A DNA stretch of 44,007 nt. Origin: a virus (taxonomy: Duplodnaviria > Heunggongvirae > Uroviricota > Caudoviricetes). The notes under the pieces were generated by a model, which searched no databases, was not told the origin of the DNA, and saw nothing but the letters and a program-made list of their open reading frames with translations. Positions 1,009-44,007 of the stretch are shown here, piece after piece. The stretch lies in the IMG/VR virus record IMGVR_UViG_2636415673_000006. The stretch is one strand, 5' to 3'. The first letter of the stretch is position 1; every line of letters begins with the position of its first letter. Both the position numbers and the translations under genes were made by a program.

Positions 1009-1809
1009 TTAAGCGGCGTCGGTGAATTCAAATAAAAAACCGGCTTGCGCCGGCTCTCTCATCTTTCTGTCTACCCATGCTGATATCGATGGTGGGTGCA
1101 CCTTTTCAATAGCTGCGCGAAGTACAGATGTACGTGCCAGTTTGTCGGTAATCTCAGGAAATCGCTTCTCTGTCTTCGGTACGTTAACAGCAACATTAGT
1201 AGAATCCGCACTGGCGAACGGATACATACCAAGAACTCTCACGTCGAGCATTCGAAGACCATGAATTTTCACTTTCAAATTACGATTGATATAAAGCTCA
1301 GTGAAAACTTCATCCATTCTCTGTTCCCACCATTTAGAGCGTATGTGCCTGTGTGGGCCGCAGCATCCAATCGCCACCCATTCAAATTTGCCAGAAAGGC
1401 GTAAAAGACGATCAATTGATTCGTCGGTATGCCAGACCGGAACCGCTTTTGATTTTAGCCAATCAGGAACCAACTCAATCTGCTTGTCGTTTTCTGCCTC
1501 TGTCCCTTCGATAACGTCAGGTATAAGAAACCATTCAATTCTGCTGAACCACTTCCCAACAAAATCGTAGAATTTTGCTCGTCTCTTACTCCAGTCTACC
1601 GGAGTGCCTTTCTTTAATGCTTTCATCCAGTCGCTAAAAGCGCCGTTATCAAGGCGTATATCACAAGGGAACATGGCAATCTTTTTCATCTGCGCTGGTC
1701 TGGCAAATGAAACAAAAGCCCCACCATCACGGTAAAGGGCTTTAATCAGCATATCTGTAGGGGCATGCGCATCCCCCCATATTGGGCTGCCGTGAAAGTG
1801 GATGGTCAT
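1009..1809 (-). CDS. Conserved lambdoid early-left protein; candidate tRNA-guanine-transglycosylase-like (DpdA-like) DNA-modification enzyme
   Basis: 266-aa ORF. Motif RLDNGAFSDW resembles the TGT substrate-binding motif LTDSGGFQ, and the C-terminal half (FEWVAIG...HGLRML...FASADST) loosely parallels the TGT GGLAVGE...YLMGVG...MFDCV blocks. No PP-loop (SGGxDS), so not PAPS-reductase/DndC-like. The gene is confident; the function is tentative. Confidence 0.45.
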   Translation of the reverse strand: MTIHFHGSPIWGDAHAPTDMLIKALYRDGGAFVSFARPAQMKKIAMFPCDIRLDNGAFSDWMKALKKGTPVDWSKRRAKFYDFVGKWFSRIEWFLIPDVIEGTEAENDKQIELVPDWLKSKAVPVWHTDESIDRLLRLSGKFEWVAIGCCGPHRHIRSKWWEQRMDEVFTELYINRNLKVKIHGLRMLDVRVLGMYPFASADSTNVAVNVPKTEKRFPEITDKLARTSVLRAAIEKVHPPSISAWVDRKMREPAQAGFLFEFTDAA

Positions 1810-3659: not shown

Positions 3660-4724
3660 TTAAGTTGATTCCAGACTTCCTTTGGTAAAAGCTTGTATCA
3701 GTCTGTTTGCTGCTGCTTTCTGCGCTGCCACATTGGCAATAACAGATAGTTTTTCCTGGCTGGCTTTCGTGCAGATCCCCGCCCAGTTATCCATCAGAAA
3801 AAAATCCTCTCTTTCTGCAGAGCTGGTAGTTGCACATAGTTTTTCGATCATAGAAGTTATTTCTGCGATGGAATGATTAACCATCATCTGTTGAACCGCA
3901 AAACCGAAAGCGTTAATCATTACTCCATGGAACTGAATATAATCGCGCTTGTACGTAGCGTGGTGTACACCATGTCGGATTGAGTCAATCTGAGTTAGTG
4001 TAATCCATGCCTCCCAGACAGATTCTATATATCCCATTTCAAGTTGTTGATTGCCGTTCCTGGCGAACTTTGACGTTGCATCAGTGAGTGCCTTGAAACT
4101 CACCCACATATTACTTTTTAATGGCACTACGTTGTGTTCAAAATCGGTTATATCGGCAAATACAGTATGTTGGGTCAGGAAGGATATCATTCCCTGAGCA
4201 ATATCATCCCGGCCGTTATACGCCATATTGATGGTCGCTGATGGCTTAGAAACGTTGTTATTTATGTCCGAAAAGAACTGCTGCCGGGTTTTTAGCGGCA
4301 GATTCATTGTAAGCATCATGGGAACCATGAGCGTTGATGGGGAACTTCGGCAAAATATCTCAATGCCAGCTGCACGATGTTGACCATCAAAAAGTTTTAT
4401 TTCGGCGTCGAGGGGAATTCTGGCTATACCAACATTTGTGTTGCCAAACGGTACAAATTCTATATTCGAATCACAGTTACCTACGAGAGGGGGAATGATA
4501 AAAGGCTCATTTCTTGAGTCTGCGTTAGTGAGATAATTTAAAAATTTTCGTACTCGATTTGGATTAATTTCTCGCTGAGAGCGTTCCAGTGTATGGCCGT
4601 AATTATCTGAAGCGAGGAAACGAGCCAGCGATCTTCCTGGTATGGTAAGGAAGAGTGTAACAGTACCACCCTGTACACCTTGCGATGCCGGAAATTCGAA
4701 TGAATGATTACCAACCTGACTCAT
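3660..4724 (-). CDS. DGQHR-domain protein (DndB/DpdB-like, ParB-like fold)
   Basis: 354-aa ORF containing the exact DGQHR signature (KLFDGQHRAAGIE) about 120 residues from the N-terminus, as in DndB/DpdB family proteins. Confidence 0.75.
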   Translation of the reverse strand: MSQVGNHSFEFPASQGVQGGTVTLFLTIPGRSLARFLASDNYGHTLERSQREINPNRVRKFLNYLTNADSRNEPFIIPPLVGNCDSNIEFVPFGNTNVGIARIPLDAEIKLFDGQHRAAGIEIFCRSSPSTLMVPMMLTMNLPLKTRQQFFSDINNNVSKPSATINMAYNGRDDIAQGMISFLTQHTVFADITDFEHNVVPLKSNMWVSFKALTDATSKFARNGNQQLEMGYIESVWEAWITLTQIDSIRHGVHHATYKRDYIQFHGVMINAFGFAVQQMMVNHSIAEITSMIEKLCATTSSAEREDFFLMDNWAGICTKASQEKLSVIANVAAQKAAANRLIQAFTKGSLEST

Positions 4725-11231: not shown

Positions 11232-11564
11232 ATGAACCCTTATATTTATCTTGGTGGTGCAATACTTGCAGAGGTCATTGGTACAACCTTAATGAAGTTT
11301 TCAGAAGGTTTTACACGGTTATGGCCATCTGTTGGTACAATTATTTGTTATTGTGCATCATTCTGGTTATTAGCTCAGACGCTGGCTTATATTCCTACAG
11401 GGATTGCTTATGCTATCTGGTCAGGAGTCGGTATTGTCCTGATTAGCTTACTGTCATGGGGACTTTTCGGCCAACGGCTGGACCTGCCAGCCATTATAGG
11501 CATGATGTTGATTTGTGCCGGTGTGTTGGTTATTAATTTATTGTCACGAAGCACACCACATTAA
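11232..11564 (+). CDS. emrE: SMR-family multidrug efflux transporter EmrE
   Basis: 110-aa four-TM protein MNPYIYLGGAILAEVIGTTLMKFSEGFTRLW... recognised as E. coli EmrE. Start set at the internal ATG; the track ORF begins at 11178. Confidence 0.9.
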   Translation: MNPYIYLGGAILAEVIGTTLMKFSEGFTRLWPSVGTIICYCASFWLLAQTLAYIPTGIAYAIWSGVGIVLISLLSWGLFGQRLDLPAIIGMMLICAGVLVINLLSRSTPH

Positions 11565-11818: not shown

Positions 11819-13345
11819 ATGAAAAAAGCCATAGCATATATGCGATTTTCATCACCAGGTCAGATATCTGGTGACTCATTAAACCGACAGAGAAGACTTA
11901 TTGCTGAATGGTTAAAGGTAAATAGTGATTATTATCTTGATACCATAACATATGAAGATTTAGGATTAAGTGCATTCAAAGGAAAGCATGCACAATCAGG
12001 AGCTTTTTCGGAATTTTTAGATGCTATAGAGCATGGTTATATATTGCCAGGAACTACATTGTTAGTTGAAAGTCTGGACAGACTTTCAAGAGAAAAAGTC
12101 GGTGAAGCGATTGAACGTCTGAAATTGATTTTGAATCACGGTATTGATGTTATAACTCTTTGCGACAATACAGTCTATAATATTGACTCTTTGAATGAGC
12201 CATATTCATTAATAAAAGCCATACTTATAGCACAAAGGGCAAATGAAGAAAGCGAGATAAAGTCAAGTCGGGTTAAATTATCATGGAAGAAAAAACGGCA
12301 GGATGCACTGGAATCAGGTACGATTATGACGGCGTCTTGTCCGAGATGGCTCTCATTGGATGACAAAAGAACGGCTTTTGTTCCAGACCCCGACAGGGTG
12401 AAAACTATTGAGCTAATTTTTAAACTCAGGATGGAAAGGCGCTCATTGAATGCAATAGCCAAGTATTTAAATGATCATGCTGTAAAGAATTTCTCAGGAA
12501 AAGAAAGTGCATGGGGACCTTCTGTAATTGAAAAATTATTAGCGAATAAAGCTCTGATAGGTATATGCGTACCTTCATATCGTGCAAGAGGGAAAGGGAT
12601 AAGTGAAATCGCTGGCTATTATCCCAGAGTCATATCAGATGATTTGTTTTACGCTGTACAGGAAATTCGGTTGGCACCTTTTGGTATTAGCAATAGTAGC
12701 AAGAATCCTATGCTAATAAATCTACTTCGAACAGTTATGAAGTGTGAGGCTTGTGGTAATACCATGATTGTTCATGCGGTATCTGGAAGTTTGCATGGCT
12801 ATTATGTTTGTCCGATGAGAAGATTACATCGATGTGACAGGCCATCAATAAAAAGAGATTTGGTTGATTATAATATCATTAATGAATTGCTTTTTAATTG
12901 TAGCAAAATTCAACCAGTTGAAAACAAGAAAGATGCTAATGAAACTTTAGAGTTAAAAATTATTGAGCTTCAGATGAAAATTAATAATTTAATTGCTGCA
13001 TTATCTGTTGCGCCTGAAGTTACCGCTATAGCAGAAAAAATCAGAGTATTAGATAAGGAATTACGAAGGGCTTCTGTATCATTAAAAACTTTGAAGAGTA
13101 AAGCGGTGAGCTCACTTGGTGATTTTCATGCTATTGACTTAACCAGTAAAAATGGGCGAGAGCTATGTCGTACACTTGCCTATAAAACATTCGAAAAAAT
13201 CATAATCAATACAGATAATAAAACCTGTGATATCTATTTTATGAATGGCATTGTTTTTAAACACTATCCTTTAATGAAAACAATATCCGCCCAGCAGGCG
13301 ATAAGTACTCTCAAATATATGGTTGATGGTGAGGTTTATTTTTGA
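11819..13345 (+). CDS. ybcK: Large serine recombinase (resolvase/invertase N-domain + recombinase domain + zinc ribbon), YbcK-like
   Basis: 508-aa ORF; N-terminal serine-recombinase motif (AIAYMRFSSPGQ...SLDRLSRE) and C-terminal Cys cluster (CEACGNTM...YYVCPMRRLHRC); AT-rich gene. Confidence 0.8.
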   Translation: MKKAIAYMRFSSPGQISGDSLNRQRRLIAEWLKVNSDYYLDTITYEDLGLSAFKGKHAQSGAFSEFLDAIEHGYILPGTTLLVESLDRLSREKVGEAIERLKLILNHGIDVITLCDNTVYNIDSLNEPYSLIKAILIAQRANEESEIKSSRVKLSWKKKRQDALESGTIMTASCPRWLSLDDKRTAFVPDPDRVKTIELIFKLRMERRSLNAIAKYLNDHAVKNFSGKESAWGPSVIEKLLANKALIGICVPSYRARGKGISEIAGYYPRVISDDLFYAVQEIRLAPFGISNSSKNPMLINLLRTVMKCEACGNTMIVHAVSGSLHGYYVCPMRRLHRCDRPSIKRDLVDYNIINELLFNCSKIQPVENKKDANETLELKIIELQMKINNLIAALSVAPEVTAIAEKIRVLDKELRRASVSLKTLKSKAVSSLGDFHAIDLTSKNGRELCRTLAYKTFEKIIINTDNKTCDIYFMNGIVFKHYPLMKTISAQQAISTLKYMVDGEVYF

Positions 13346-13954: not shown

Positions 13955-14737
13955 ATGGACAATATTAATAAACACGGGCTCTCAAGAAGAATACCTGAGA
14001 CAATAAAACGTCAGATAAGGCAAAGGTGCGGCTTTGGCTGTGTAATTTGTGGATTTGGATTTTATGATTATGAGCATTTTAAACCTGACTTCGTTGATGC
14101 CAAAGTACATGATCCGAATGGAATGACACTTCTTTGCTCCCAATGCAATCAAAAAAGAGCTCGTGGTAGACTTTCAGCACAGACAGTGGAAATAGCTGAC
14201 AGAAATCCCAAGTGCTTACAGGCTGGTTTTGCAAATGAAATGTTTGATTTTCATAATGAGCCTATAACAGTAAAATTTGCAGGAGTGACGTTTCATAACT
14301 GTCAAAATTTGATTGTAGTCAATGAACAACCCATTCTTTCTGTGAAACCTTCACCCATACCACATGGACCGATGCTTTTATCAGGAATTTTCTGTAATTC
14401 TATTGGTAAGGAGACTTTACTGATAGATGAAAATGAATGGAAAGCTAAATCAGACAATTGGGATGTGGAGTGTACCGGCCCGCGTATAACAATACGACGT
14501 GGGCCAGGAGAGTTTGCCCTCGTTCTAAAAATGGAACCTCCAACAGGATTGATTGTTGAGCGTCTTGATATGTTGTATGAAGGGGTCAGGATGAAAGGAG
14601 ATAAAGATCTGCTGGAAGTTTCGATTAATGGAGGTCCCTTGCACAGATGGCAATCATGCTCAATGTCAAATTGCCATACAGGGCTTGCGATTCAGGGCGG
14701 TATTAGAGCTGCTAATGATCCTTTGTATTGCGCCTAA
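13955..14737 (+). CDS. HNH-nuclease-domain protein with uncharacterised C-terminal domain
   Basis: 260-aa ORF; N-terminal HNH-like zinc-finger block (CGFGCVICG...YDYEH...NGMTLLCSQCNQKRARG); about 180 aa of unrecognised sequence follows. Confidence 0.55.
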   Translation: MDNINKHGLSRRIPETIKRQIRQRCGFGCVICGFGFYDYEHFKPDFVDAKVHDPNGMTLLCSQCNQKRARGRLSAQTVEIADRNPKCLQAGFANEMFDFHNEPITVKFAGVTFHNCQNLIVVNEQPILSVKPSPIPHGPMLLSGIFCNSIGKETLLIDENEWKAKSDNWDVECTGPRITIRRGPGEFALVLKMEPPTGLIVERLDMLYEGVRMKGDKDLLEVSINGGPLHRWQSCSMSNCHTGLAIQGGIRAANDPLYCA

Positions 14738-15838: not shown

Positions 15839-16197
15839 ATACCTACAGTATCACATTACCCTGGCCTCCGAGCAATAATCGCTATTACCGCCATAATCGC
15901 GGGCGCACGCACGTCAGTGCAGAGGGGCAGGCATACCGCGATAACGTCGCCCGAATCATTAAAAACGCAATGCTGGATATCGGCCTGGCTATGCCTGTGA
16001 AAATCCGCATTGAGTGCCACATGCCGGATTGCCGTAGCCGTGACCTGGATAATCTGCAAAAAGCCGCTTTTGACGCACTCACTAAAGCAGGTTTCTGGCT
16101 GGATGATGCTCAGGTCGTTGATTACCGCGTTGTGAAGATGCCTGTTACCAAAGGTGGGAGGCTGGAACTGACCATCACCGAAATGGGGAATGAATGA
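15835..16197 (+). CDS. rusA: Holliday-junction resolvase RusA
   Basis: 120-aa [27 protein letters not shown]... recognised as RusA. Confidence 0.9.
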
Positions 16198-16334
16198 TGT
16201 TTGAGTTTAATATGGCAGAACTTCTTCGCCACCGCTGGGGGCGTCTGCGCTTATATCGTTTCCCCGGCTCTGTTTTGACCGATTACCGAATACTGAAGAA
16301 TTACGCCAAAACACTGACAGGAGCAGGAGTATGA
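16194..16334 (+). CDS. ylcG: YlcG-like small protein
   Basis: Hand-translated 46-aa [49 protein letters not shown] overlapping the rusA stop. Confidence 0.5.
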
Positions 16335-16419
16335 AGTCAGAGATAACAATCAACTAATACTGTTTTGTTGATTTTTGCTTGTAATTGGCGTTCTGGTCTG
16401 AGTTTTGTGGAGTAAGTTG

Positions 16420-16797
16420 ATGCGTGATATTCAGATGGTTCTTGAGCGTTGGGGAGCGTGGGCGGCTAATAATCATGAAGATGTGACCTGGTCGTCCATT
16501 GCCGCCGGTTTTAAGGGATTAATTCCTTCAAAAGTAAAATCTCGCCCGCAATGTTGTGACGATGACGCGATGATCATTTGCGGGTGCATGGCCCGTCTGA
16601 AAAAGAACAACAGCGATTTGCATGATTTATTGGTGGACTATTATGTCGGCGGCATGACTTTTATGGCGCTTGCACGTAAGCATGGGCGATCTGATTGTTG
16701 GGTTGGCAGGATGCTCCAGAAAGCTGAGGGCGTAGTGGAGGGTATGCTGATGGTGTTGGATCTCCGATTGGAGATGGATGCTGATTGTTCGAAATAA
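16420..16797 (+). CDS. quuD: Late-gene antiterminator Q (phage-82/DLP12 QuuD type)
   Basis: [24 protein letters not shown]... with a Cys cluster ([12 protein letters not shown]); position immediately upstream of tR' and the lysis genes. The track ORF starts at 16405. Confidence 0.8.
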
Positions 16798-16896
16798 TTA
16801 AAGGAAAAGTTGCTGTCTGATTCTCATTAGTCTAACATTTTAAATGTTGGAATCGCAACGTAGTTATTATCATATAACAGCTTGTTTCCTGATTTA

Positions 16897-16925
16897 GCCA
16901 GCCTCCCCAAAGGCTGGTTTTTTTC
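16897..16925 (+). terminator. tR'-like rho-independent terminator (end of the short pR' transcript)
   Basis: ccagcc-tccccaaa-ggctgg followed by T7, about 100 bp downstream of Q. Confidence 0.6.
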
Positions 16926-16952
16926 TAATAAGTATTATTTCGGGTAGGGATT

Positions 16953-17477
16953 TTATTGTTTAACCCATAATAATTCATTGACATTGAATCCCAACTTTTG
17001 AGCGGTTCGCACATAGTCTGCTTTTACTTTATCTGGAATAGTTGGGGTCCTTGCCAGAATCCATAGGTATTCTCTGTTCGGACCACTGACAAGAGCATAC
17101 TTATACTCATCATCCAGTTTGATTACATTATAGCCACCATAGAAGGGGCCAAAAAACGAAACCTTCAACGCTGCAGTTTTAGTATCTCCAGTAAAGTATG
17201 CTTTACCTTCGCTCTCGCTCCATTTATTTTTCGTTGGATCGTATCCACGGTTAAGTACACGAATCCCTCCGTCGTTCCGTTTTCCATAGGTAGCGCTGAC
17301 CTGTTCCAGACCACGTTCGAACCGGTTCTCGAGGCGAGCTATTTCATACCATTTTCCGAGGTAGCGGTTGGCGTCAAAATTTGTAATCGGCTGCACACCT
17401 TTAGGTGGTGTCGGGGCCTTACATGCTATAAGAGTGAAAGAGAGTGCAATGCCAGTCAACACAGGCCATAACTTCAT
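16953..17477 (-). CDS. blc: Bacterial lipocalin Blc-like outer-membrane lipoprotein
   Basis: 174-aa ORF with lipobox (LIAC) and lipocalin signature (NFDANRYLGKWYEIARLENRFERG ... YLWILARTP), strongly resembling E. coli Blc. Confidence 0.85.
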   Translation of the reverse strand: MKLWPVLTGIALSFTLIACKAPTPPKGVQPITNFDANRYLGKWYEIARLENRFERGLEQVSATYGKRNDGGIRVLNRGYDPTKNKWSESEGKAYFTGDTKTAALKVSFFGPFYGGYNVIKLDDEYKYALVSGPNREYLWILARTPTIPDKVKADYVRTAQKLGFNVNELLWVKQ

Positions 17478-17669
17478 AATAAATCCTGTACTTTTGATAG
17501 TTGAGAGTAAGTATGAAAGATAGATGATTACGACCGATCACTTAAAGAACTTTCATACTATATTAGGAATAGTCTATAACAGAAAAATTGTCAGTGATGA
17601 CGCCAGAAAGGCAATTTATTCCGTGCACTACACAGTTTATGTGTTAATGAATTAGTCAAGGGGGAGAAT

Positions 17670-18629
17670 ATGATAAAAAAACCTGTGATTGGAATCAGCG
17701 GTTGTTTGGCCGGCTCTGCTGTTCGTTTTGATGGTGGTCACAAAAGAGCTGACTTTTTAATGGACAAATTAGTGGAATGGGTAACATTCAGACCAGTATG
17801 TCCGGAAATGGCTATAGGGCTGCCAGTTCCGCGTCCTGCTCTACGTCTTGTGCGCTCGACGCAAGGAAATATACGGATGTGTTTCAGCCACGACCAGAAT
17901 GAGGATGTGACAGAGAGAATGACAGAGTTTAGTCGTTCTTATATGGACAAATTAAAGGATGTATCGGGGTTTGTGGTTTGTGCTAAATCTCCCAGCTGTG
18001 GCATGGAGCGCGTGCGTGTCTATGATGAAAATGGTAATCGAGGTCGTAAAGATGGAGTGGGACTATTTACGAGCACTTTGATGGAAAAGTTTTCCTGGCT
18101 ACCGGTTGAAGAGGATGGGCGATTACATGATCCAGTGCTTCGTGAGAATTTTGTTGAAAGAGTTTTTGCTTTGCATGAGCTCAATCACCTTTACAAGGAG
18201 AAATTATCAAGAAGAGAGTTATTAGCTTTTCATAGTCGTTATAAGCTTCAGTTGTTGGCGCATAGTCAGGCAGGCTATAAAGATATGGGACCATTTGTGG
18301 CTGCAATACACGAGTGGGCGGACCTTGAATCATACTTTGAGGTGTATCGTGATAAGCTGATGGCGATTCTCAGAAAACCTGCATCACGTAAAAATCACAC
18401 GAATGTGCTGATGCATATACAGGGGTATTTTAGTAACTACTTAAGTACACGCCAGCGTAAAGAGTTGAGCGAGGTTATACTTAACTATCGTTCTGGCACA
18501 TTACCTCTTCTTGCGCCGTTGACTCTGCTGAAGCATTATCTGGGTGAGTATCCTAATGATTACTTGCTTACACAGAATTACTTCGCTCCCTATCCGGACG
18601 AACTGGCTCTAAGACTGATGGTAAATTAA
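17670..18629 (+). CDS. YbgA-like protein (DUF523/DUF1722 family)
   Basis: 319-aa ORF; N-terminus PVIGISGCLAGSAVRFDGGHK and domain organisation resemble E. coli YbgA; RBS GGGGGAG before the ATG. Confidence 0.6.
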   Translation: MIKKPVIGISGCLAGSAVRFDGGHKRADFLMDKLVEWVTFRPVCPEMAIGLPVPRPALRLVRSTQGNIRMCFSHDQNEDVTERMTEFSRSYMDKLKDVSGFVVCAKSPSCGMERVRVYDENGNRGRKDGVGLFTSTLMEKFSWLPVEEDGRLHDPVLRENFVERVFALHELNHLYKEKLSRRELLAFHSRYKLQLLAHSQAGYKDMGPFVAAIHEWADLESYFEVYRDKLMAILRKPASRKNHTNVLMHIQGYFSNYLSTRQRKELSEVILNYRSGTLPLLAPLTLLKHYLGEYPNDYLLTQNYFAPYPDELALRLMVN

Positions 18630-18971
18630 TTGTATGCGATATCATCCAAAAGGATGAGTTCCTGCATGCAAGATATTTACAATCGTAAAAACTACACTAT
18701 GATACCCAGAGTGTCAGTTTGTATAAAAACTCTGTTTACGCTGAAGAAACCATTGAGATGCAACTTAAAGTTGGTAAACATGCCAGTCAAAATATATAAT
18801 ATTATGATTCCACGCAGCTATATATAATATAACAGATTGGTTTAATAATTTGTCTTTGTGAGTTAAATACATAATTTTATACTTGTGATGCAATGAGATT
18901 TTCCTTATTGTTGAACTGGCGAATATTGATTTTCCACCTATACTTACCTGGTGTAACCCCAATGATATCAG

Positions 18972-19712
18972 GTGGATAATATGCCATACATATGTTCTAT
19001 CATTTTGGTGTTGAACTCGTTTGATGTCCGAATTGGTAAAGAAGATATTTTGTTTAAAAAAGGAAGTGCTGTTCTCATTGATTACAATTTAAAAGATTTT
19101 TTTTCATCAAATATAGATCATGTAATGATCGTAGATGTTGAAGAGAAAACAGTTAATGATTTCTTTAAAAGCAACACACTCTCACCTTTTTCTGTAAGAA
19201 GGTTTTATCCGGCATACTTGATGGTGGAATGTGAAGATTTTTCATTGTTAAAGAACTTGATTGCATGCTTGAATTGTGATGGCAGAACTGTGGATTTTGT
19301 TAGAAATCAAATATCACTTGCATGTCTTGCTATCTTATCTTCAGAGAAAATAGTGCAAAGTTTTTTATTTGGATGTCTTAATAGTTTAGGAAGTAAAGTT
19401 AAGGCTATTATTCACACGGATATATCTGCAGCATGGAGACTTTGTGATATATCTTCAAGACTGTATCTGAGTGAAAGTCTGTTAAAAAGAAAATTAAAGC
19501 ACGAAGGCTTATCATTTAGTAAGTTAATTCTTGAAGAGCGAATGGTGATGGCGGAAAGGTTATTAAGCTACAATTTATATTCTGTTGGAAAAGTTGCTGA
19601 GATATGCGGTTATGAAAACACGTCATATTTTGTAAGTGTTTTCAGAAGATATTTTGGTGTTCCTCCCCATCAATATTCATCAAGACTTTTTTTAGAAAAA
19701 GACATGATGTAA
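18972..19712 (+). CDS. AraC/XylS-family transcriptional regulator (AppY/EnvY/YbcM-like)
   Basis: 246-aa ORF with C-terminal AraC HTH (VGKVAEICGYENTSYFVSVFRRYFGVPPHQY); very AT-rich gene. Confidence 0.8.
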   Translation: MDNMPYICSIILVLNSFDVRIGKEDILFKKGSAVLIDYNLKDFFSSNIDHVMIVDVEEKTVNDFFKSNTLSPFSVRRFYPAYLMVECEDFSLLKNLIACLNCDGRTVDFVRNQISLACLAILSSEKIVQSFLFGCLNSLGSKVKAIIHTDISAAWRLCDISSRLYLSESLLKRKLKHEGLSFSKLILEERMVMAERLLSYNLYSVGKVAEICGYENTSYFVSVFRRYFGVPPHQYSSRLFLEKDMM

Positions 19713-19773
19713 CGTGATGCGTTTTAATGATTTTGTAATTTTCGTATTTAATAATTGTATGATGCTTTCAGCT

Positions 19774-19806
19774 ACGCCAGAATAATCGCTGGCGTTTTTC
19801 TTTTTG
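19774..19806 (+). terminator. Rho-independent terminator after the AraC-family gene
   Basis: cgccag-aataatc-gctggcg followed by tttttcttttt. Confidence 0.5.
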
Positions 19807-19900
19807 AATAGATGTTCAAGCCTTACGCTAATGTAACTTCTATACCTTTCCTCTTCGTTCCGAACCGTGTACACCATCCGTTATTTGCGGAGGTGAGGCT

Positions 19901-20116
19901 ATGAAATCCATGGATAAGTTAACAACGGGCATTGCCTACGGCACCTCCGCAGGCAGTGCTGGCTACTGGTTTTTACAGCTGCTCGATAAAGTCACGCCCT
20001 CACAGTGGGCAGCAATAGGTGTGCTGGGTAGCTTGGTATTTGGCTTGCTGACGTACCTGACAAACCTTTATTTCAAGATTAAAGAAGATAAGCGCAAGGC
20101 TGCGAGAGGTGAATAA
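19901..20116 (+). CDS. essD: Holin (phage-21 S-type pinholin, EssD-like) with dual-start motif
   Basis: 71-aa [29 protein letters not shown]... with two TM segments and a Met1/Met4 dual start. Confidence 0.85.
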
Positions 20117-20613
20117 TGCCTCCATCATTACGAAAAGCCGTTGCTGCTGCTATTGGTGGCGGAGCAATTGCTATAGCATCAGTGTTAATCACTGGCTCAA
20201 GTGGTAACGATGGTCTGGAGGGTGTCAGCTACATACCATACAAAGATATTGTTGGTGTATGGACTGTATGTCACGGGCATACAGGAAAAGACATCATGCT
20301 CGGTAAAACGTATACCAAAGCAGAATGCAAAGCCCTCCTGAATAAAGACCTTGCCACGGTCGCCAGACAAATTAACCCGTACATAAAAGTTGATATACCG
20401 GAAACAACGCGCGGCGCTCTTTACTCGTTCGTTTACAACGTGGGCGCTGGCAATTTCAGAACATCGACGCTTCTTCGCAAAATAAACCAGGGCGATATCA
20501 AAGGCGCATGTGATCAGCTACGTCGCTGGACATATGCTGGCGGTAAGCAATGGAAAGGTCTCATGACTCGTCGTGAGATTGAGCGTGAAATCTGTTTGTG
20601 GGGTCAGCAATGA
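20116..20613 (+). CDS. rrrD: SAR endolysin (T4-lysozyme-like glycoside hydrolase, phage-21 R type)
   Basis: 165-aa ORF with N-terminal signal-anchor-release segment ([26 protein letters not shown]) and lysozyme-like body. Confidence 0.85.
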
Positions 20614-21074
20614 ACAGAGTAACCGCGATTATCTCCGCTCTGGTTATCTGCATCATCGTCTGCCTGTCATGGGCTGTTAATCATTACCGCGATAACGCCA
20701 TTACCTACAAAGCCCAGCGCGACAAAAATGCCAGAGAACTGAAGCTGGCGAACTCGACAATTACTGACATGCAGGTGCGCCAGCGTGATGTTGCTGCGCT
20801 CGATGCAAAATACACGAAGGAGTTAGCTGATGCGAAAGCTGAAAATGATGCTCTGCGTGATGATGTTGCCGCTGGTCGTCGTCGGTTGCACATCAAAGCA
20901 GTCTGTCCGGACAAGCATAAAACCACCGCCGCCTCCGGCGTGGATGATGCTTCCAGCCCCAGACTTACTGACACCGCTCAACGGGATTATTTCGTTCTCA
21001 GAGAGCGCATCGAAACCATAACTAACCAATTGAATGGCCTGCAAGAATATGTGAGATCACAGTGTTCATATTAG
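20610..21074 (+). CDS. Rz: Rz i-spanin
   Basis: [47 protein letters not shown]... closely resembles lambda Rz; the track ORF starts at 20598. Confidence 0.85.
20830..21021 (+). CDS. Rz1: Rz1 o-spanin lipoprotein (embedded in Rz, +1 frame)
   Basis: [23 protein letters not shown]... with lipobox and proline-rich stretch (KPPPPPAW), nested within Rz as in lambda. Confidence 0.75.
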
Positions 21075-21112: not shown

Positions 21113-21487
21113 ATGTCTCAATACGCTCACGTTGCTTTAATCGCTTATCATTTGGTGGCTGATAGCTCAATGACTCCTCGTGATGCATGGGATGCAGCTG
21201 TCGCAGAGGTTACAGAAAGCGAATCGTCAAGAAAGAAGATATGCCCAAGGGCAACATTTCTCGCCCTGGCGGATAGCGGTTACCTCAAGAATGTAAAACC
21301 ACTGCATGGGGAGAAAAAGGGCGGTAAGTTGTACCAAAGGGCAATTGAAGTTGCGAATCTGATTCTTGATTTACCCGGAATCAGTAAAGCTGAATTGGTT
21401 GATAAAACTGGTTACAAAGACAGGCAAGGGTCTTATGACCTGATTCTCGCTCTGTATCATCATGAGCAACTCCAGCGATCGGAATAA
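21113..21487 (+). CDS. Hypothetical protein
   Basis: 124-aa ORF after the lysis cassette; no recognised motif. Confidence 0.45.
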   Translation: MSQYAHVALIAYHLVADSSMTPRDAWDAAVAEVTESESSRKKICPRATFLALADSGYLKNVKPLHGEKKGGKLYQRAIEVANLILDLPGISKAELVDKTGYKDRQGSYDLILALYHHEQLQRSE

Positions 21488-41584: not shown

Positions 41585-42709
41585 TTAAGATATTCTTTTA
41601 GCTATAGAATGACCTATATTTATAAACGGTTTTTCTATTACGTTATATATCAAGTAAGATAGGCTTATAGAAATTATGAGCGATGATATATAAATGGCAA
41701 ACGATCTATGTTCAGTGCTAACACCAATGCTGGAACCGTAAAACTCAATAAACTGTATAACAGGAACATGAATCAGATAAAGTGAATATGATATTCCACC
41801 AAGAGCAACAAGTGATTTATTGAATGAAATAACTTTATTATTTTCTAGAATAATAACACATAAAACAATCAGAAATGCAATATATGCAGATCGCGTCAAA
41901 CCATGTCCTTCAGACACCCCATTAAGCCAAAAAACAAACATCATTCCTAGAATGAAAACGCATAAACTATTTATAATAGCATTATTCATTCTTTTATGCC
42001 TAAGTAAAGGCATTGTCTCTGATATAATCATCCCTAAAATGAAATCATATACTATAGGGTTGCCTATGAATCCTATATGAGAAAACACTCCTGTTTTTGC
42101 AATATTGAATGATTGGGCGTCAATTACTACCGAGTGGTTAAAGTAAAGAGAAATAATTGTACTTACAGCAACTAGAAAACATGATGTGATTAATACCCTG
42201 TATTTTATACTTAATGACATGGATATTGCGAAAATAAAATAAAAATATATCTCGTACCCAAGTGACCATGAAACAATTAGCGTTCCCCACCCATAATATG
42301 GCGGTAGAGTTGAGCCATCTAAAGGGATGAGAAGAAATGATTTTATAATATTATTTATAGAAAAAACACCACCCCATGATACGCCTGTGTAAATATTGTG
42401 GTAAAAAAGAAAAACATAAACGCTTAATACTATTGCGTAAACAGGATAAATTCTAAAAAATCTCTTTACAAGAAATGAAGCGGTATTTCTTAAAGATGTT
42501 TTTGCTAAGTTTTTAGTTGAGTATGATATTATAAATCCGCTTATTATAAAAAACAATTCAACTCCAAATATAGCATTCGCGGTTATCTTGTCCATGAAAG
42601 AACCAGGATCTACTTGCCCGAAAAGACCTCTATTATGACCAATAGCTACAGCAAGAGCTGCAATTCCACGAAGCGCTTCTATTCCGTATAATTTATCTGT
42701 TTTCATCAA
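41585..42709 (-). CDS. Acyltransferase family 3 integral membrane protein (putative O-antigen/LPS O-acetyltransferase, lysogenic-conversion gene)
   Basis: 374-aa polytopic membrane ORF with the family N-terminus (LYGIEALRGIAALAVAIGHN); extremely AT-rich; located between tail fibre genes and integrase. Confidence 0.75.
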   Translation of the reverse strand: MMKTDKLYGIEALRGIAALAVAIGHNRGLFGQVDPGSFMDKITANAIFGVELFFIISGFIISYSTKNLAKTSLRNTASFLVKRFFRIYPVYAIVLSVYVFLFYHNIYTGVSWGGVFSINNIIKSFLLIPLDGSTLPPYYGWGTLIVSWSLGYEIYFYFIFAISMSLSIKYRVLITSCFLVAVSTIISLYFNHSVVIDAQSFNIAKTGVFSHIGFIGNPIVYDFILGMIISETMPLLRHKRMNNAIINSLCVFILGMMFVFWLNGVSEGHGLTRSAYIAFLIVLCVIILENNKVISFNKSLVALGGISYSLYLIHVPVIQFIEFYGSSIGVSTEHRSFAIYISSLIISISLSYLIYNVIEKPFINIGHSIAKRIS

Positions 42710-42849: not shown

Positions 42850-44007
42850 CTATGATACCTTCTCCTCAATCCAATCCGCCCACCACTGCATCATTTCTCT
42901 GCGCTTATCGAGATACTGAGCATGGTTGTAAATCCCGCGCACAGATCCGCCGTTGGCATGTGCCAGTTGCACTTCAATAGCATCAGCAGGCCATTCGTGC
43001 TCGTTCATAATCGTGCTGAATTCATGCCTGAATCCGTGACCGCTTTCCAGACCTTCATAGCCGATTTGTTTGATCACAAGCAGTACAGCGTTCTCGCAAA
43101 TTGGCTTCTTCTTATCGTTGCGCCCGGCAAAAACAAACTCTGATACTGGTTTGGTGATTGAACTTAGCGTAGTGAGAAGTTCAACTACCTGGTCTGACAT
43201 AGGAACCACATGAATTTTGCGTCCCTTCATCACACTGGCGTCGATGGTGATAATCCTGTTTTCAAAATCGACGTTCTTCCATAGCATGGAACGAAGCTCT
43301 TTTGTTCTGAGGGCAGTGTAGCGTAAAACTTTGGTCGCAATGAGCGATACGATACTTCCTGAAAATGTTGCCAGTGCTTTGTTGAATGCCGGGATCTGGT
43401 CTGCAGGAAGAAACGGGAAGTTCTTCTTGCGGTATCCTTTCATGGCGTCAGCAAGGTCAGGTGCCGGGTTATATTTAGCCCTGCCTGTGACAATAGCGTA
43501 ACGGAAAACCTCGCCGCATCTTCTGCGGGCTTTATTGGCTCGTTCCATTGCGCCGCGATCTTCAAATCTGCGGATTACTTCCAACAGTTGCATCGGCTCA
43601 ATATCCTGAATTTCAAGGCCGCCGATGATGGGTAAAATGTCGTCATCAAACATTTTTGCAAGTTCATTTGCATAGCCTACTGACCAGACTTGCTTCTTGT
43701 GCTCGTACCATTCCTTGTAAATGGCGCTAAAGGAGTTGTTGTTAGACGAAGCCTTTTTCGCTTTTACCGGATCGATGCCAACCGAGATGTCTTTCCTCGC
43801 AGTCCATGCTTTATCCCTTGCCTCCTGCAAAGTCATAAGCGGATATTTTCCTACGGTCAGTATTTTTTCCTTACCGTCAATCTTGTAGCGAAGCTGCCAT
43901 ACCTTTTTCCCGGATACAGGGACATAAAGGTACAGGCCATTACCATCGAGAAGGCGGTATGGTTTTTCTTTCGGCTTTGCTGCTTCAATCTGCTTAACGG
44001 TGAGCAT
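42850..44007 (-). CDS. int: Tyrosine integrase (P4/DLP12 IntD type)
   Basis: 385-aa ORF whose ATG is the last codon of the window (MLTVKQIEAAKPKEKPYRLLDGNGLYLYV...); C-terminal catalytic region HGFRHEFSTIMNE...AHANGGSVRGIYNHAQY contains the conserved R/H/R/Y residues. Confidence 0.9.
   Translation of the reverse strand: MLTVKQIEAAKPKEKPYRLLDGNGLYLYVPVSGKKVWQLRYKIDGKEKILTVGKYPLMTLQEARDKAWTARKDISVGIDPVKAKKASSNNNSFSAIYKEWYEHKKQVWSVGYANELAKMFDDDILPIIGGLEIQDIEPMQLLEVIRRFEDRGAMERANKARRRCGEVFRYAIVTGRAKYNPAPDLADAMKGYRKKNFPFLPADQIPAFNKALATFSGSIVSLIATKVLRYTALRTKELRSMLWKNVDFENRIITIDASVMKGRKIHVVPMSDQVVELLTTLSSITKPVSEFVFAGRNDKKKPICENAVLLVIKQIGYEGLESGHGFRHEFSTIMNEHEWPADAIEVQLAHANGGSVRGIYNHAQYLDKRREMMQWWADWIEEKVS

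Follow-up and report, generated by a model that had tools for sequence, protein, structure and literature searches.

The DNA analysed here, 44,007 nucleotides (nt) of a virus of the Caudoviricetes (IMG/VR record IMGVR_UViG_2636415673_000006; "the window" below, to which all coordinates refer unless another record is named), carries three genes between the late antiterminator gene Q and the lysis genes: blc, for a lipocalin lipoprotein, rudS, for a predicted tRNA 4-thiouridine (s4U) desulfidase, and an araC-type regulatory gene. The stretch that holds them, 16780-19889, is an exchangeable module, and it is probably a lysogenic-conversion ("moron") cassette with three functional genes, placed at the cargo site that is exchanged between Q and lysis. 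A first-pass annotation of the window had described a cargo of three open reading frames (ORFs) between Q and the holin gene, with blc antisense to late transcription, and had likened the site to that of stx in Shiga toxin (Stx) phages. ORF listing and profile searches bore out the cargo, both hairpins and the flanks being found where they had been put and blc lying on the minus strand at 16953-17477, and the gene identities were also right at the domain level (Blc lipocalin, DUF523/DUF1722, AraC family).

The borders of the module follow from the comparison with the K-12 prophage DLP12, in which homology ends at 16779, 18 nt before the Q stop codon, and restarts at 19890, 11 nt before the ATG of the holin gene (essD in DLP12). 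The same interval holds a porin gene, nmpC/ompD, on the minus strand in DLP12 and in ev243-type phages, and stx2AB together with tRNA genes in Stx2 phages, so that different cargo occupies the site in related phages; DLP12, the ev243-type and the Stx2 phages, which made up this comparison of site occupancy, all had cargo there. Since the porin gene and stx2AB occupy the equivalent interval, the analogy with the stx site holds. Unlike Stx phages, the entire window is without tRNA genes. As is expected of a moron, the cassette differs in G+C content from the surrounding phage, and it falls into two parts in this respect: blc and rudS have 44% G+C, araC has 31.8% and the spacer upstream of it 32%, while the value for the whole window is 48.9%. 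The region is not host chromosome but phage-borne, because the window is otherwise a lambdoid genome (early genes of the exo/bet/gam type, repressor, cro, replication genes, TerL, an HK97-type capsid, a tail sheath and an integrase), and the cassette is also present in phage isolates. A scan of 16000-20500 against Rfam at a permissive threshold returned only chance matches below threshold. None of the 5,027 defence models of PADLOC matched Blc, RudS or the AraC protein, and the cassette was therefore ruled out as a defence system.

The middle gene, rudS (17670-18629, plus strand), encodes 319 amino acids (aa) with a TudS domain (DUF523; PF04463, residues 7-149, E 3e-40) fused to DUF1722 (PF08349, residues 192-309, E 3e-40). 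Previous work described RudS as such a fusion, which takes the sulfur off s4U in tRNA and so converts this near-UV-sensitive nucleoside to uridine (Jamontas et al. 2024, PMC11417400). Six enzymes were tested in that study, among them RudS_vir, which is gp66 of Escherichia phage 1H12 (H3V29_gp66); upon overexpression all of them lowered s4U in E. coli tRNA as measured by high-performance liquid chromatography with tandem mass spectrometry (HPLC-MS/MS), and RudS overexpression reduced the growth delay caused by ultraviolet A light (UVA). Aligned over all 319 residues, RudS_vir and the window protein agree at 93% identity. The window protein has Cys12, Cys44 and Cys110, the [4Fe-4S] ligands listed for RudS_vir (PMC11417400, Table 1), and its Glu46, Ser107, Ser109 and Arg55 align with Glu51, Ser111, Ser113 and Arg60 of RudS_KT; every residue named as catalytic in that paper is thus present. 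On these alignments the middle gene is RudS, a predicted [4Fe-4S] tRNA s4U desulfidase. The earlier label of a YbgA-like DUF523/DUF1722 protein had the domains right but was too vague for a gene so close to an assayed enzyme. Of RudS, the K-12 chromosome has no more than a counterpart of the DUF1722 half, YbgA (49% identical), and does not encode the catalytic part. One E. coli record (P0030) was observed to contain a 403-aa protein in which a RudS sequence (99% identity, 92% of the query covered) is combined with a GGDEF domain (PF00990); this could be a fusion or an artefact of assembly or annotation.

The first gene, blc (16953-17477, minus strand, 174 aa), is a paralog of the chromosomal blc and encodes a second Blc-type outer-membrane lipocalin. 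Its product scored 316.1 bits against the NCBIfam model for Blc (NF007786, cut-off 267), covering residues 1-174 of the 176-position model, and it matched PF08212 (E 7e-44) and solved Blc structures (E 1e-68). The N terminus, MKLWPVLTGIALSFTLIAC19K, contains the lipobox L-I-A-C, with Lys and not Asp at position +2. Lipoproteins are sorted to the outer membrane when residue +2 is other than Asp. Binding of lysophospholipids or fatty acids in the calyx may be expected, though only from homology to the solved Blc structures. The allele is WP_000780581.1, found in a genome whose sequence agrees with the window at 100% identity throughout the region. This protein was detected by proteomics in a clinical E. 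coli isolate, 2- to 3-fold up under meropenem, and was handled there as the ordinary Blc (PMC13459554). A scan for sigma-70 promoters gave no strong match for blc.

The third gene, araC (18981-19712, plus strand), encodes an AraC/XylS-family regulator of 243-246 aa, depending on whether translation starts at the ATG at 18981, which RefSeq uses and which has the better Shine-Dalgarno sequence, or at an alternative GTG at 18972. Its DNA-binding domain scored 54.9 bits against PF12833 (cut-off 33.6) and 44.1 bits against PF00165 (cut-off 26.6). Over about 234 residues the protein is 54% identical to ECs_0287, 34% to GadW, 32% to YdeO and 31% to AppY; the clade comparison was made with these four. 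The closest relative with a known counterpart is ECs_0287 of strain Sakai, a protein of 247 aa from the tail-fibre end of prophage Sp1. The two agree more in the DNA-binding domain (72%) than in the N-terminal domain (38%), and both recognition helices are near-identical. Scores against equivalog models stayed below their cut-offs (YdeO 126.8 vs 348, GadX 85.7 vs 500, HilD 86.8 vs 354), and the protein is therefore not an ortholog of any named regulator. By homology it is an uncharacterised full-length member of the GadW/YdeO/AppY/PatE clade, which strengthens the earlier suggestion that it could act on host genes. PatE, PsrB and AppY, all encoded by prophages, were reported to activate gadE/hdeA and acid resistance, and PsrA and PsrB to repress type III secretion (PMC10877973; PMC10057817). 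Since its relatives PatE, PsrB and AppY activate gadE/hdeA, the regulator would most likely feed the acid-resistance network. The spacer upstream of araC (18630-18980, plus strand) is AT-rich and contains sigma-70-like matches at 18676-18703 and 18771-18800, each 10/12, in a scan whose total was not above that of shuffled sequences. A more distant AraC-type gene, 39% identical to that of the window, lies at 4001-4714 in phage phiSTEC1575-Stx2k, between Q and a block of tRNA genes and stx2AB; from this relative, located just upstream of stx2, such regulators recur as cargo between Q and holin.

The cassette was found in 998 of 5,426 complete E. coli genomes at a coverage of at least 80%, with alleles that fall into roughly three groups at about 99%, 94% and 90% identity. 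Isolated phages carry it as well: IdasGreatGrand at 98%, and 1H12 and ten further records (Lambda_ev and Lambda_2E9-type) at about 90%. All of the 80 IMG/VR contigs that formed the viral sample contain it, and the order Q-blc-rudS-araC-holin is essentially invariant. In these contigs the spacers between Q and blc (161-163 nt) and between blc and rudS (192-193 nt) hardly vary, and the spacer upstream of araC, of 353 to 734 nt, is the part of the cassette most variable in length. The flanks vary too, with RusA present or replaced and an unrelated endolysin in about 20 contigs. The backbones include DLP12-like prophages at argU, Qin-like prophages and, in the window, a sheathed-tail phage. The most variable gene is araC, with 82% protein identity between the window and 1H12, and a second araC allele, 84-86% identical, is paired with a RudS of 97% identity. 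The ratio of nonsynonymous to synonymous divergence (dN/dS) between the window and 1H12 was 0.06 for blc, 0.11 for rudS and 0.27 for araC, compared with 0.05 for lysozyme and 0.08 for holin, at a synonymous divergence of 0.2-0.35 between the compared alleles. All three cargo genes are under purifying selection, and these ratios indicate that selection maintains them.

Damaged copies were also seen. The combination of blc and rudS without araC was considered as an ancestral two-gene form and was rejected, as the example examined has IS1 in the place of araC; at least one such variant is thus an araC deletion associated with an insertion sequence (IS). BL21 TaKaRa (NZ_CP010816.1, contig positions 3521-6110) and Rosetta2-DE3 have Q, blc and the first 49 codons of rudS, cut by IS3, in a Qin-like prophage. 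The stub is presumably inactive, because Cys110 is missing from the predicted product. BL21(DE3) has served as the assay host for RudS enzymes, as a "RudS-free" background. In AS19-RrmA- there is an IS3-like element in the cassette, with separate annotations of a YbgA-family protein and a 2-thiouracil desulfurase, which suggests that rudS is split in this strain. Two short contigs of a Candidatus Nanosynbacter (Saccharibacteria) metagenome-assembled genome (MAG; JARKOR01) encode Q, Blc, RudS, AraC and holin at 93-100% protein identity, almost certainly as a result of binning contamination.

As regards origin, RudS proteins of the phage clade occur in E. coli only, and the next relatives are chromosomal proteins, about 76% identical, of Citrobacter, Enterobacter, Klebsiella, Salmonella, Serratia and others. 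On the chromosome of Buttiauxella, a blc gene (79% identical) is divergent from a rudS gene (75%), with a MerR gene of the MlrA/BluR type in between; a second such MerR gene and a gene for a BLUF-EAL blue-light receptor lie downstream, and SnoaL, SDR and amine-oxidase genes follow blc on the same strand as blc. In Citrobacter the cluster consists of SnoaL, SDR, amine oxidase, DUF1365, a CFA-synthase-like gene, DUF2878, an unannotated ORF, DUF3833 and, in the last place, rudS. A palindrome, GACAAA-N7-TTTGT (CTTAGACAAA-N7-TTTGTTGTGTAA), is common to the chromosomal rudS promoters of Buttiauxella, Kosakonia and a soil MAG. It lies about 60-100 nt before the ATG and downstream of the MlrA/BluR-type MerR gene, and it may be an operator through which rudS is controlled by light. 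From these comparisons, blc and rudS appear to have come jointly from an enterobacterial locus for light or photo-oxidative stress, minus its MerR-type light regulator, and to have been uncoupled from light sensing; for araC we infer a separate acquisition of low G+C content. Buttiauxella itself was rejected as the direct donor, since the DNA identity is only about 70% and is limited to the coding regions. No literature linking lipocalins with LitR/MerR light regulons was found.

The divergent control region of the phage genes (17478-17669) has a 10-nt perfect inverted repeat, AGTATGAAAG at 17510-17519 and CTTTCATACT at 17550-17559, and each arm holds a CATACT hexamer resembling a -10 element, one directed at blc and the other at rudS. 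The significance of this repeat is doubtful, because it is not kept in the 1H12 allele. Neither a MerR gene or MerR remnant nor the palindrome of the chromosomal rudS promoters was detected in the phage cassette by tblastn and alignment, and a retained remnant or operator upstream of phage rudS was rejected on these grounds.

Transcription into the cassette would come from the Q side. Q (16420-16797, plus strand, with a possible alternative TTG start at 16405; annotated in RefSeq as the 378-nt form) matches PF06530 (E 2.5e-51) and is 87.5% identical to QuuD of K-12; its assignment to the Q21/Q933W family follows earlier work (10.1101/651190). In the Q21 family, the late cassette was described as consisting of Q, the late promoter pR', a Q-binding element (QBE) of two 8-bp direct repeats, a sigma-dependent pause element and the terminator tR'; polymerase starting from pR' halts at the downstream terminator unless it is loaded with Q, and Q-loaded polymerase passes terminator hairpins (10.1101/651190). 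Two candidates for pR' were noted on the plus strand of the window. Candidate (a), TGGAGA-18-AATAAT at 16769-16798, came from a consensus scan (9/12) and extends across the stop codon of Q, and the TAATTAA that surrounds its -10 element is unchanged in DLP12. Candidate (b), TTGCTG-17-TAACAT at 16810-16838, was found by eye (7/12). Homology did not serve to place pR': the phage 434 record is a 434/DLP12 recombinant without an annotated promoter, and the alignment with DLP12 shares short motifs only.

The candidate tR' is an intrinsic terminator on the late strand, with a stem-loop at 16896-16919 that starts 99 nt past the Q stop codon and has a 9-bp G+C-rich stem, a 6-nt loop and a run of seven U, the element extending to 16926. 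Its 85-nt context folds with -24 kcal/mol (z = -4.0), and the stem is identical in the 1H12 allele, which is about 10% divergent. The earlier description of a strong tR'-like terminator downstream of Q is thus upheld as to the terminator, but the leader around it is confined to cassette-bearing phages and is not common to the Q type. A bidirectional function that would also serve blc was considered and rejected; the hairpin is probably unidirectional, because the minus-strand fold is without a U-tract (z = -0.8). The terminator that had been ascribed to araC is present as well, with a 7-bp stem (stem-loop at 19774-19795, plus strand) followed by a T-rich tail up to 19805. It folds with -12.1 kcal/mol (z = -1.7), and its hairpin and T-tract are unchanged across the window, 1H12, IdasGreatGrand and SCU-102, although adjacent bases vary. 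Terminator-like sites in the region numbered 3, compared with 2.9 in shuffled sequences, which is not above expectation. Both hairpins are the same in cassette alleles whose remaining sequences are about 10% divergent.

If these parts work as their relatives do, the two hairpin terminators would confine transcription in the lysogen, the one at 16896 ending the leader transcript and the one at 19774 keeping araC transcription out of the holin gene, so that the lysis genes are insulated. The three genes would then each be expressed from their own weak or stress-dependent promoters, and the lysogen would gain tolerance to envelope or lipid stress, tolerance to near-UV and probably an input into the gadE/hdeA acid-resistance regulon. 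Upon induction, Q-modified polymerase from pR' would cross both terminators toward holin and produce, ahead of the lysis genes, sense RNA of rudS and araC and antisense RNA of blc. Such read-through would couple expression of the cargo to lytic growth, as it does for stx.

Several results weigh against a lysogenic-conversion cassette of this kind. The late promoter could not be placed with confidence, both candidates being weak; the post-Q leader showed no clear 8-bp tandem subsites of a Q-binding element and is found only in cassette-bearing phages, and the sigma-70 scan of the region found 13 sites where 10.7 were expected from shuffles, that is, no enrichment. Insertions of IS1, IS2, IS3, IS5, IS911 and ISVsa5 and IS-mediated deletions are common in the cassette, which therefore seems to be dispensable in many lineages. 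E. coli in the gut is exposed to little light, so that selection for a benefit under near-UV is not obvious. Only one of the six chromosomal loci examined has blc beside rudS. The targets of the regulator are derived from homology of 54% only, and ECs_0287 is probably PatE (z0321, OI-8), as judged from position and length only. A search of the literature found no expression data for rudS or araC, and RudS_vir, which was assayed by overexpression only, did have activity, but less of it for its protein level than the other enzymes tested (PMC11417400).

Some of the same observations could be explained differently. The cassette, or at least rudS, might benefit the lytic cycle: with s4U at position 8 (s4U8) erased, synthesis of late proteins would be shielded from the cross-linking of tRNA by near-UV and from the stringent response, in a setting where sunlight or UV triggers SOS induction. 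This is consistent with the place of rudS as the first sense-strand ORF past the leader terminator, with its strong Shine-Dalgarno sequence (GGGGGAG), with the loss of the light-sensing MerR control of the chromosomal loci, with a position relative to Q that is fixed in 80 of 80 viral contigs, and with the lessened UVA growth delay upon RudS overexpression (PMC11417400). However, RudS acts on s4U, and action on tRNA that is already cross-linked is not indicated, for which reason late expression may come too late; an antisense blc, and an araC with promoter-like sites and a terminator of its own, are also typical of cargo that is expressed in the lysogen. A lytic role is an attractive idea, which we hold to be rather unlikely. 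A wider proposal, equally tentative, is that the phage edits the epitranscriptome of host tRNA. RudS, released from MerR control and placed under the Q-dependent late promoter, would erase s4U8 during induction or, to a small extent, in the lysogen, and disable the growth-delay and stringent alarm set off by near-UV, and the PatE-like regulator and Blc would complete a coordinated stress programme. If this were true, late phage proteins could still be made after the sunlight or UV that triggered SOS, and about one in five complete E. coli genomes would have regained RudS activity through prophages.

It could also be supposed that the main effect of the cassette is on the cell surface, through remodelling or through exclusion of other phages; Blc would then be a counterpart of nmpC/ompD, Bor and Cor, and rudS and araC would be carried along as passengers. 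In favour of this, related phages have an outer-membrane porin as cargo at the site, Blc is a lipoprotein of the same membrane, and iss/bor and acyltransferase cargo also occur in these phages. None of the 5,027 defence models matched, however, rudS and araC are under purifying selection and are co-inherited with blc at fixed spacing, and we know of no receptor-blocking function of Blc, although no search was aimed at one; this explanation is improbable in our view. The frequent IS insertions and deletions, including the loss of araC and the truncation of rudS in BL21, would be in accordance with a neutral, decaying hitch-hiker on a successful Q-holin module, which we consider the least probable account. 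Neutral hitch-hiking is disfavoured by the selection data (dN/dS of 0.06-0.27 at the synonymous divergence given above), and the intact ORFs in about 1,000 genomes, the conserved terminators and catalytic residues and the detection of the Blc protein also speak against it. A lysogenic-conversion cassette with three functional genes is thus the explanation that we prefer.

All component families, the classic cargo site and an assayed RudS ortholog are already known, and the sequence is annotated in hundreds of genomes. The searchable literature was not found to treat the three genes as one cassette, nor to give their likely origin, their prevalence or the PatE-like regulator. The value of the present analysis is in correct annotation and in prevalence; no new kind of system is involved. 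It was stated previously that E. coli is without RudS (PMC11417400). For the gene pool of the species this is not so, because 998 of 5,426 complete genomes carry a full-length phage-borne copy. With so many genomes carrying full-length rudS and with a truncated remnant in BL21, the usual expression host, strain background may matter for s4U in tRNA, for UVA growth delay and for labelling experiments with 4-thiouridine. The cassette places an eraser of a tRNA modification and a regulator of the acid-resistance type in a regulatory arrangement like that of Shiga toxin, and it makes testable the question of whether erasure of s4U benefits the lysogen or the phage burst. The AraC protein is a further, as yet uncharacterised, representative of the prophage-borne PatE/Psr/AppY group, which acts on acid resistance and, in enterohaemorrhagic E. 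coli (EHEC), on type III secretion.

Other genes of the window were recorded in the course of the analysis. The downstream anchor of the module is formed by the lysis genes (19901-21074), which on the plus strand comprise a P21-type holin (19901-20116, PF04971), a lysozyme (20116-20613, PF00959) and Rz (20598-21074, PF03245); after Rz, where many relatives have bor/iss, there is an accessory gene for a DUF6979 protein (21113-21487, plus strand). In the early-left operon, 1009-1809 (minus strand) encodes a 266-aa protein that matched the PHROG "queuine tRNA-ribosyltransferase" (E 5e-101) and had no Pfam hit, and which we take to be of the type tied to 7-deazaguanine DNA modification. A DndB-like protein is encoded nearby, at 3660-4724 (minus strand; Pfam E 4e-46, PADLOC DndB E 4e-37), and these two genes may form a DNA-modification or anti-restriction module. 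The nin region contains, as in K-12 DLP12, an EmrE-type small multidrug-resistance transporter (11232-11564) and a YbcK-type large serine recombinase (11819-13345), both on the plus strand, which are further cargo in the early-right operon. Upstream of ybcN, another accessory gene at 13955-14737 (plus strand) encodes a 260-aa protein of PHROG 6544 without a Pfam match. At the right end of the window, Acyl_transf_3 acyltransferase sequence adjoins the integrase (41585-42706 and 42850-44007, minus strand); this is likely a second lysogenic-conversion gene, resembling the O-antigen acetylase cargo of serotype-converting phages.

The window Blc shares with E. coli Blc (b4149) the score above the family cut-off, the lipobox, the size and the structure matches; it is 60% identical to it, a prophage-borne second copy, and is not beside ampC. 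With RudS_vir of 1H12, the window RudS has in common the architecture, the length of 319 aa, the cluster ligands, the catalytic Glu and Ser residues and the place between blc and an AraC gene downstream of Q, whereas the alleles diverge by 7% in amino acids and about 8% in nucleotides. The window gene lies in a sheathed-tail phage, while viral RudS genes were previously reported only in Siphoviridae, in a paper without discussion of genomic context, of linked blc and AraC genes or of prevalence in E. coli genomes (PMC11417400). The chromosomal RudS loci of Buttiauxella, Citrobacter, Kosakonia and Salmonella (ORF319/STM1389) encode proteins 68-76% identical to that of the phage and adjoin MerR genes, BLUF-EAL and/or the cluster of SnoaL, SDR, amine oxidase, DUF1365 and CFA-synthase-like genes, all of which the phage copy lacks; the divergent arrangement of blc and rudS in Buttiauxella is the same as in the phage.

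In the comparison with ECs_0287, GadW, YdeO and AppY, the AraC protein shares full-length homology and a two-domain layout with the group of PatE, PsrA/PsrB, AppY and GadW/GadX/YdeO, and like PatE, Psr and AppY its gene is low in G+C and prophage-borne; it is situated at the Q-holin site, whereas ECs_0287 and appY are at the tail-fibre or attachment-site end. The cassette as a whole occupies the same interval, from Q and the leader terminator to holin, as stx1/stx2 in Stx phages and nmpC/ompD in DLP12 and ev243-type phages, and for those cargoes, as for the cassette, read-through by Q-modified polymerase is expected (10.1101/651190). It differs from them in that the genes are others, one of them is antisense to the late transcript, and an internal terminator stands just before holin.

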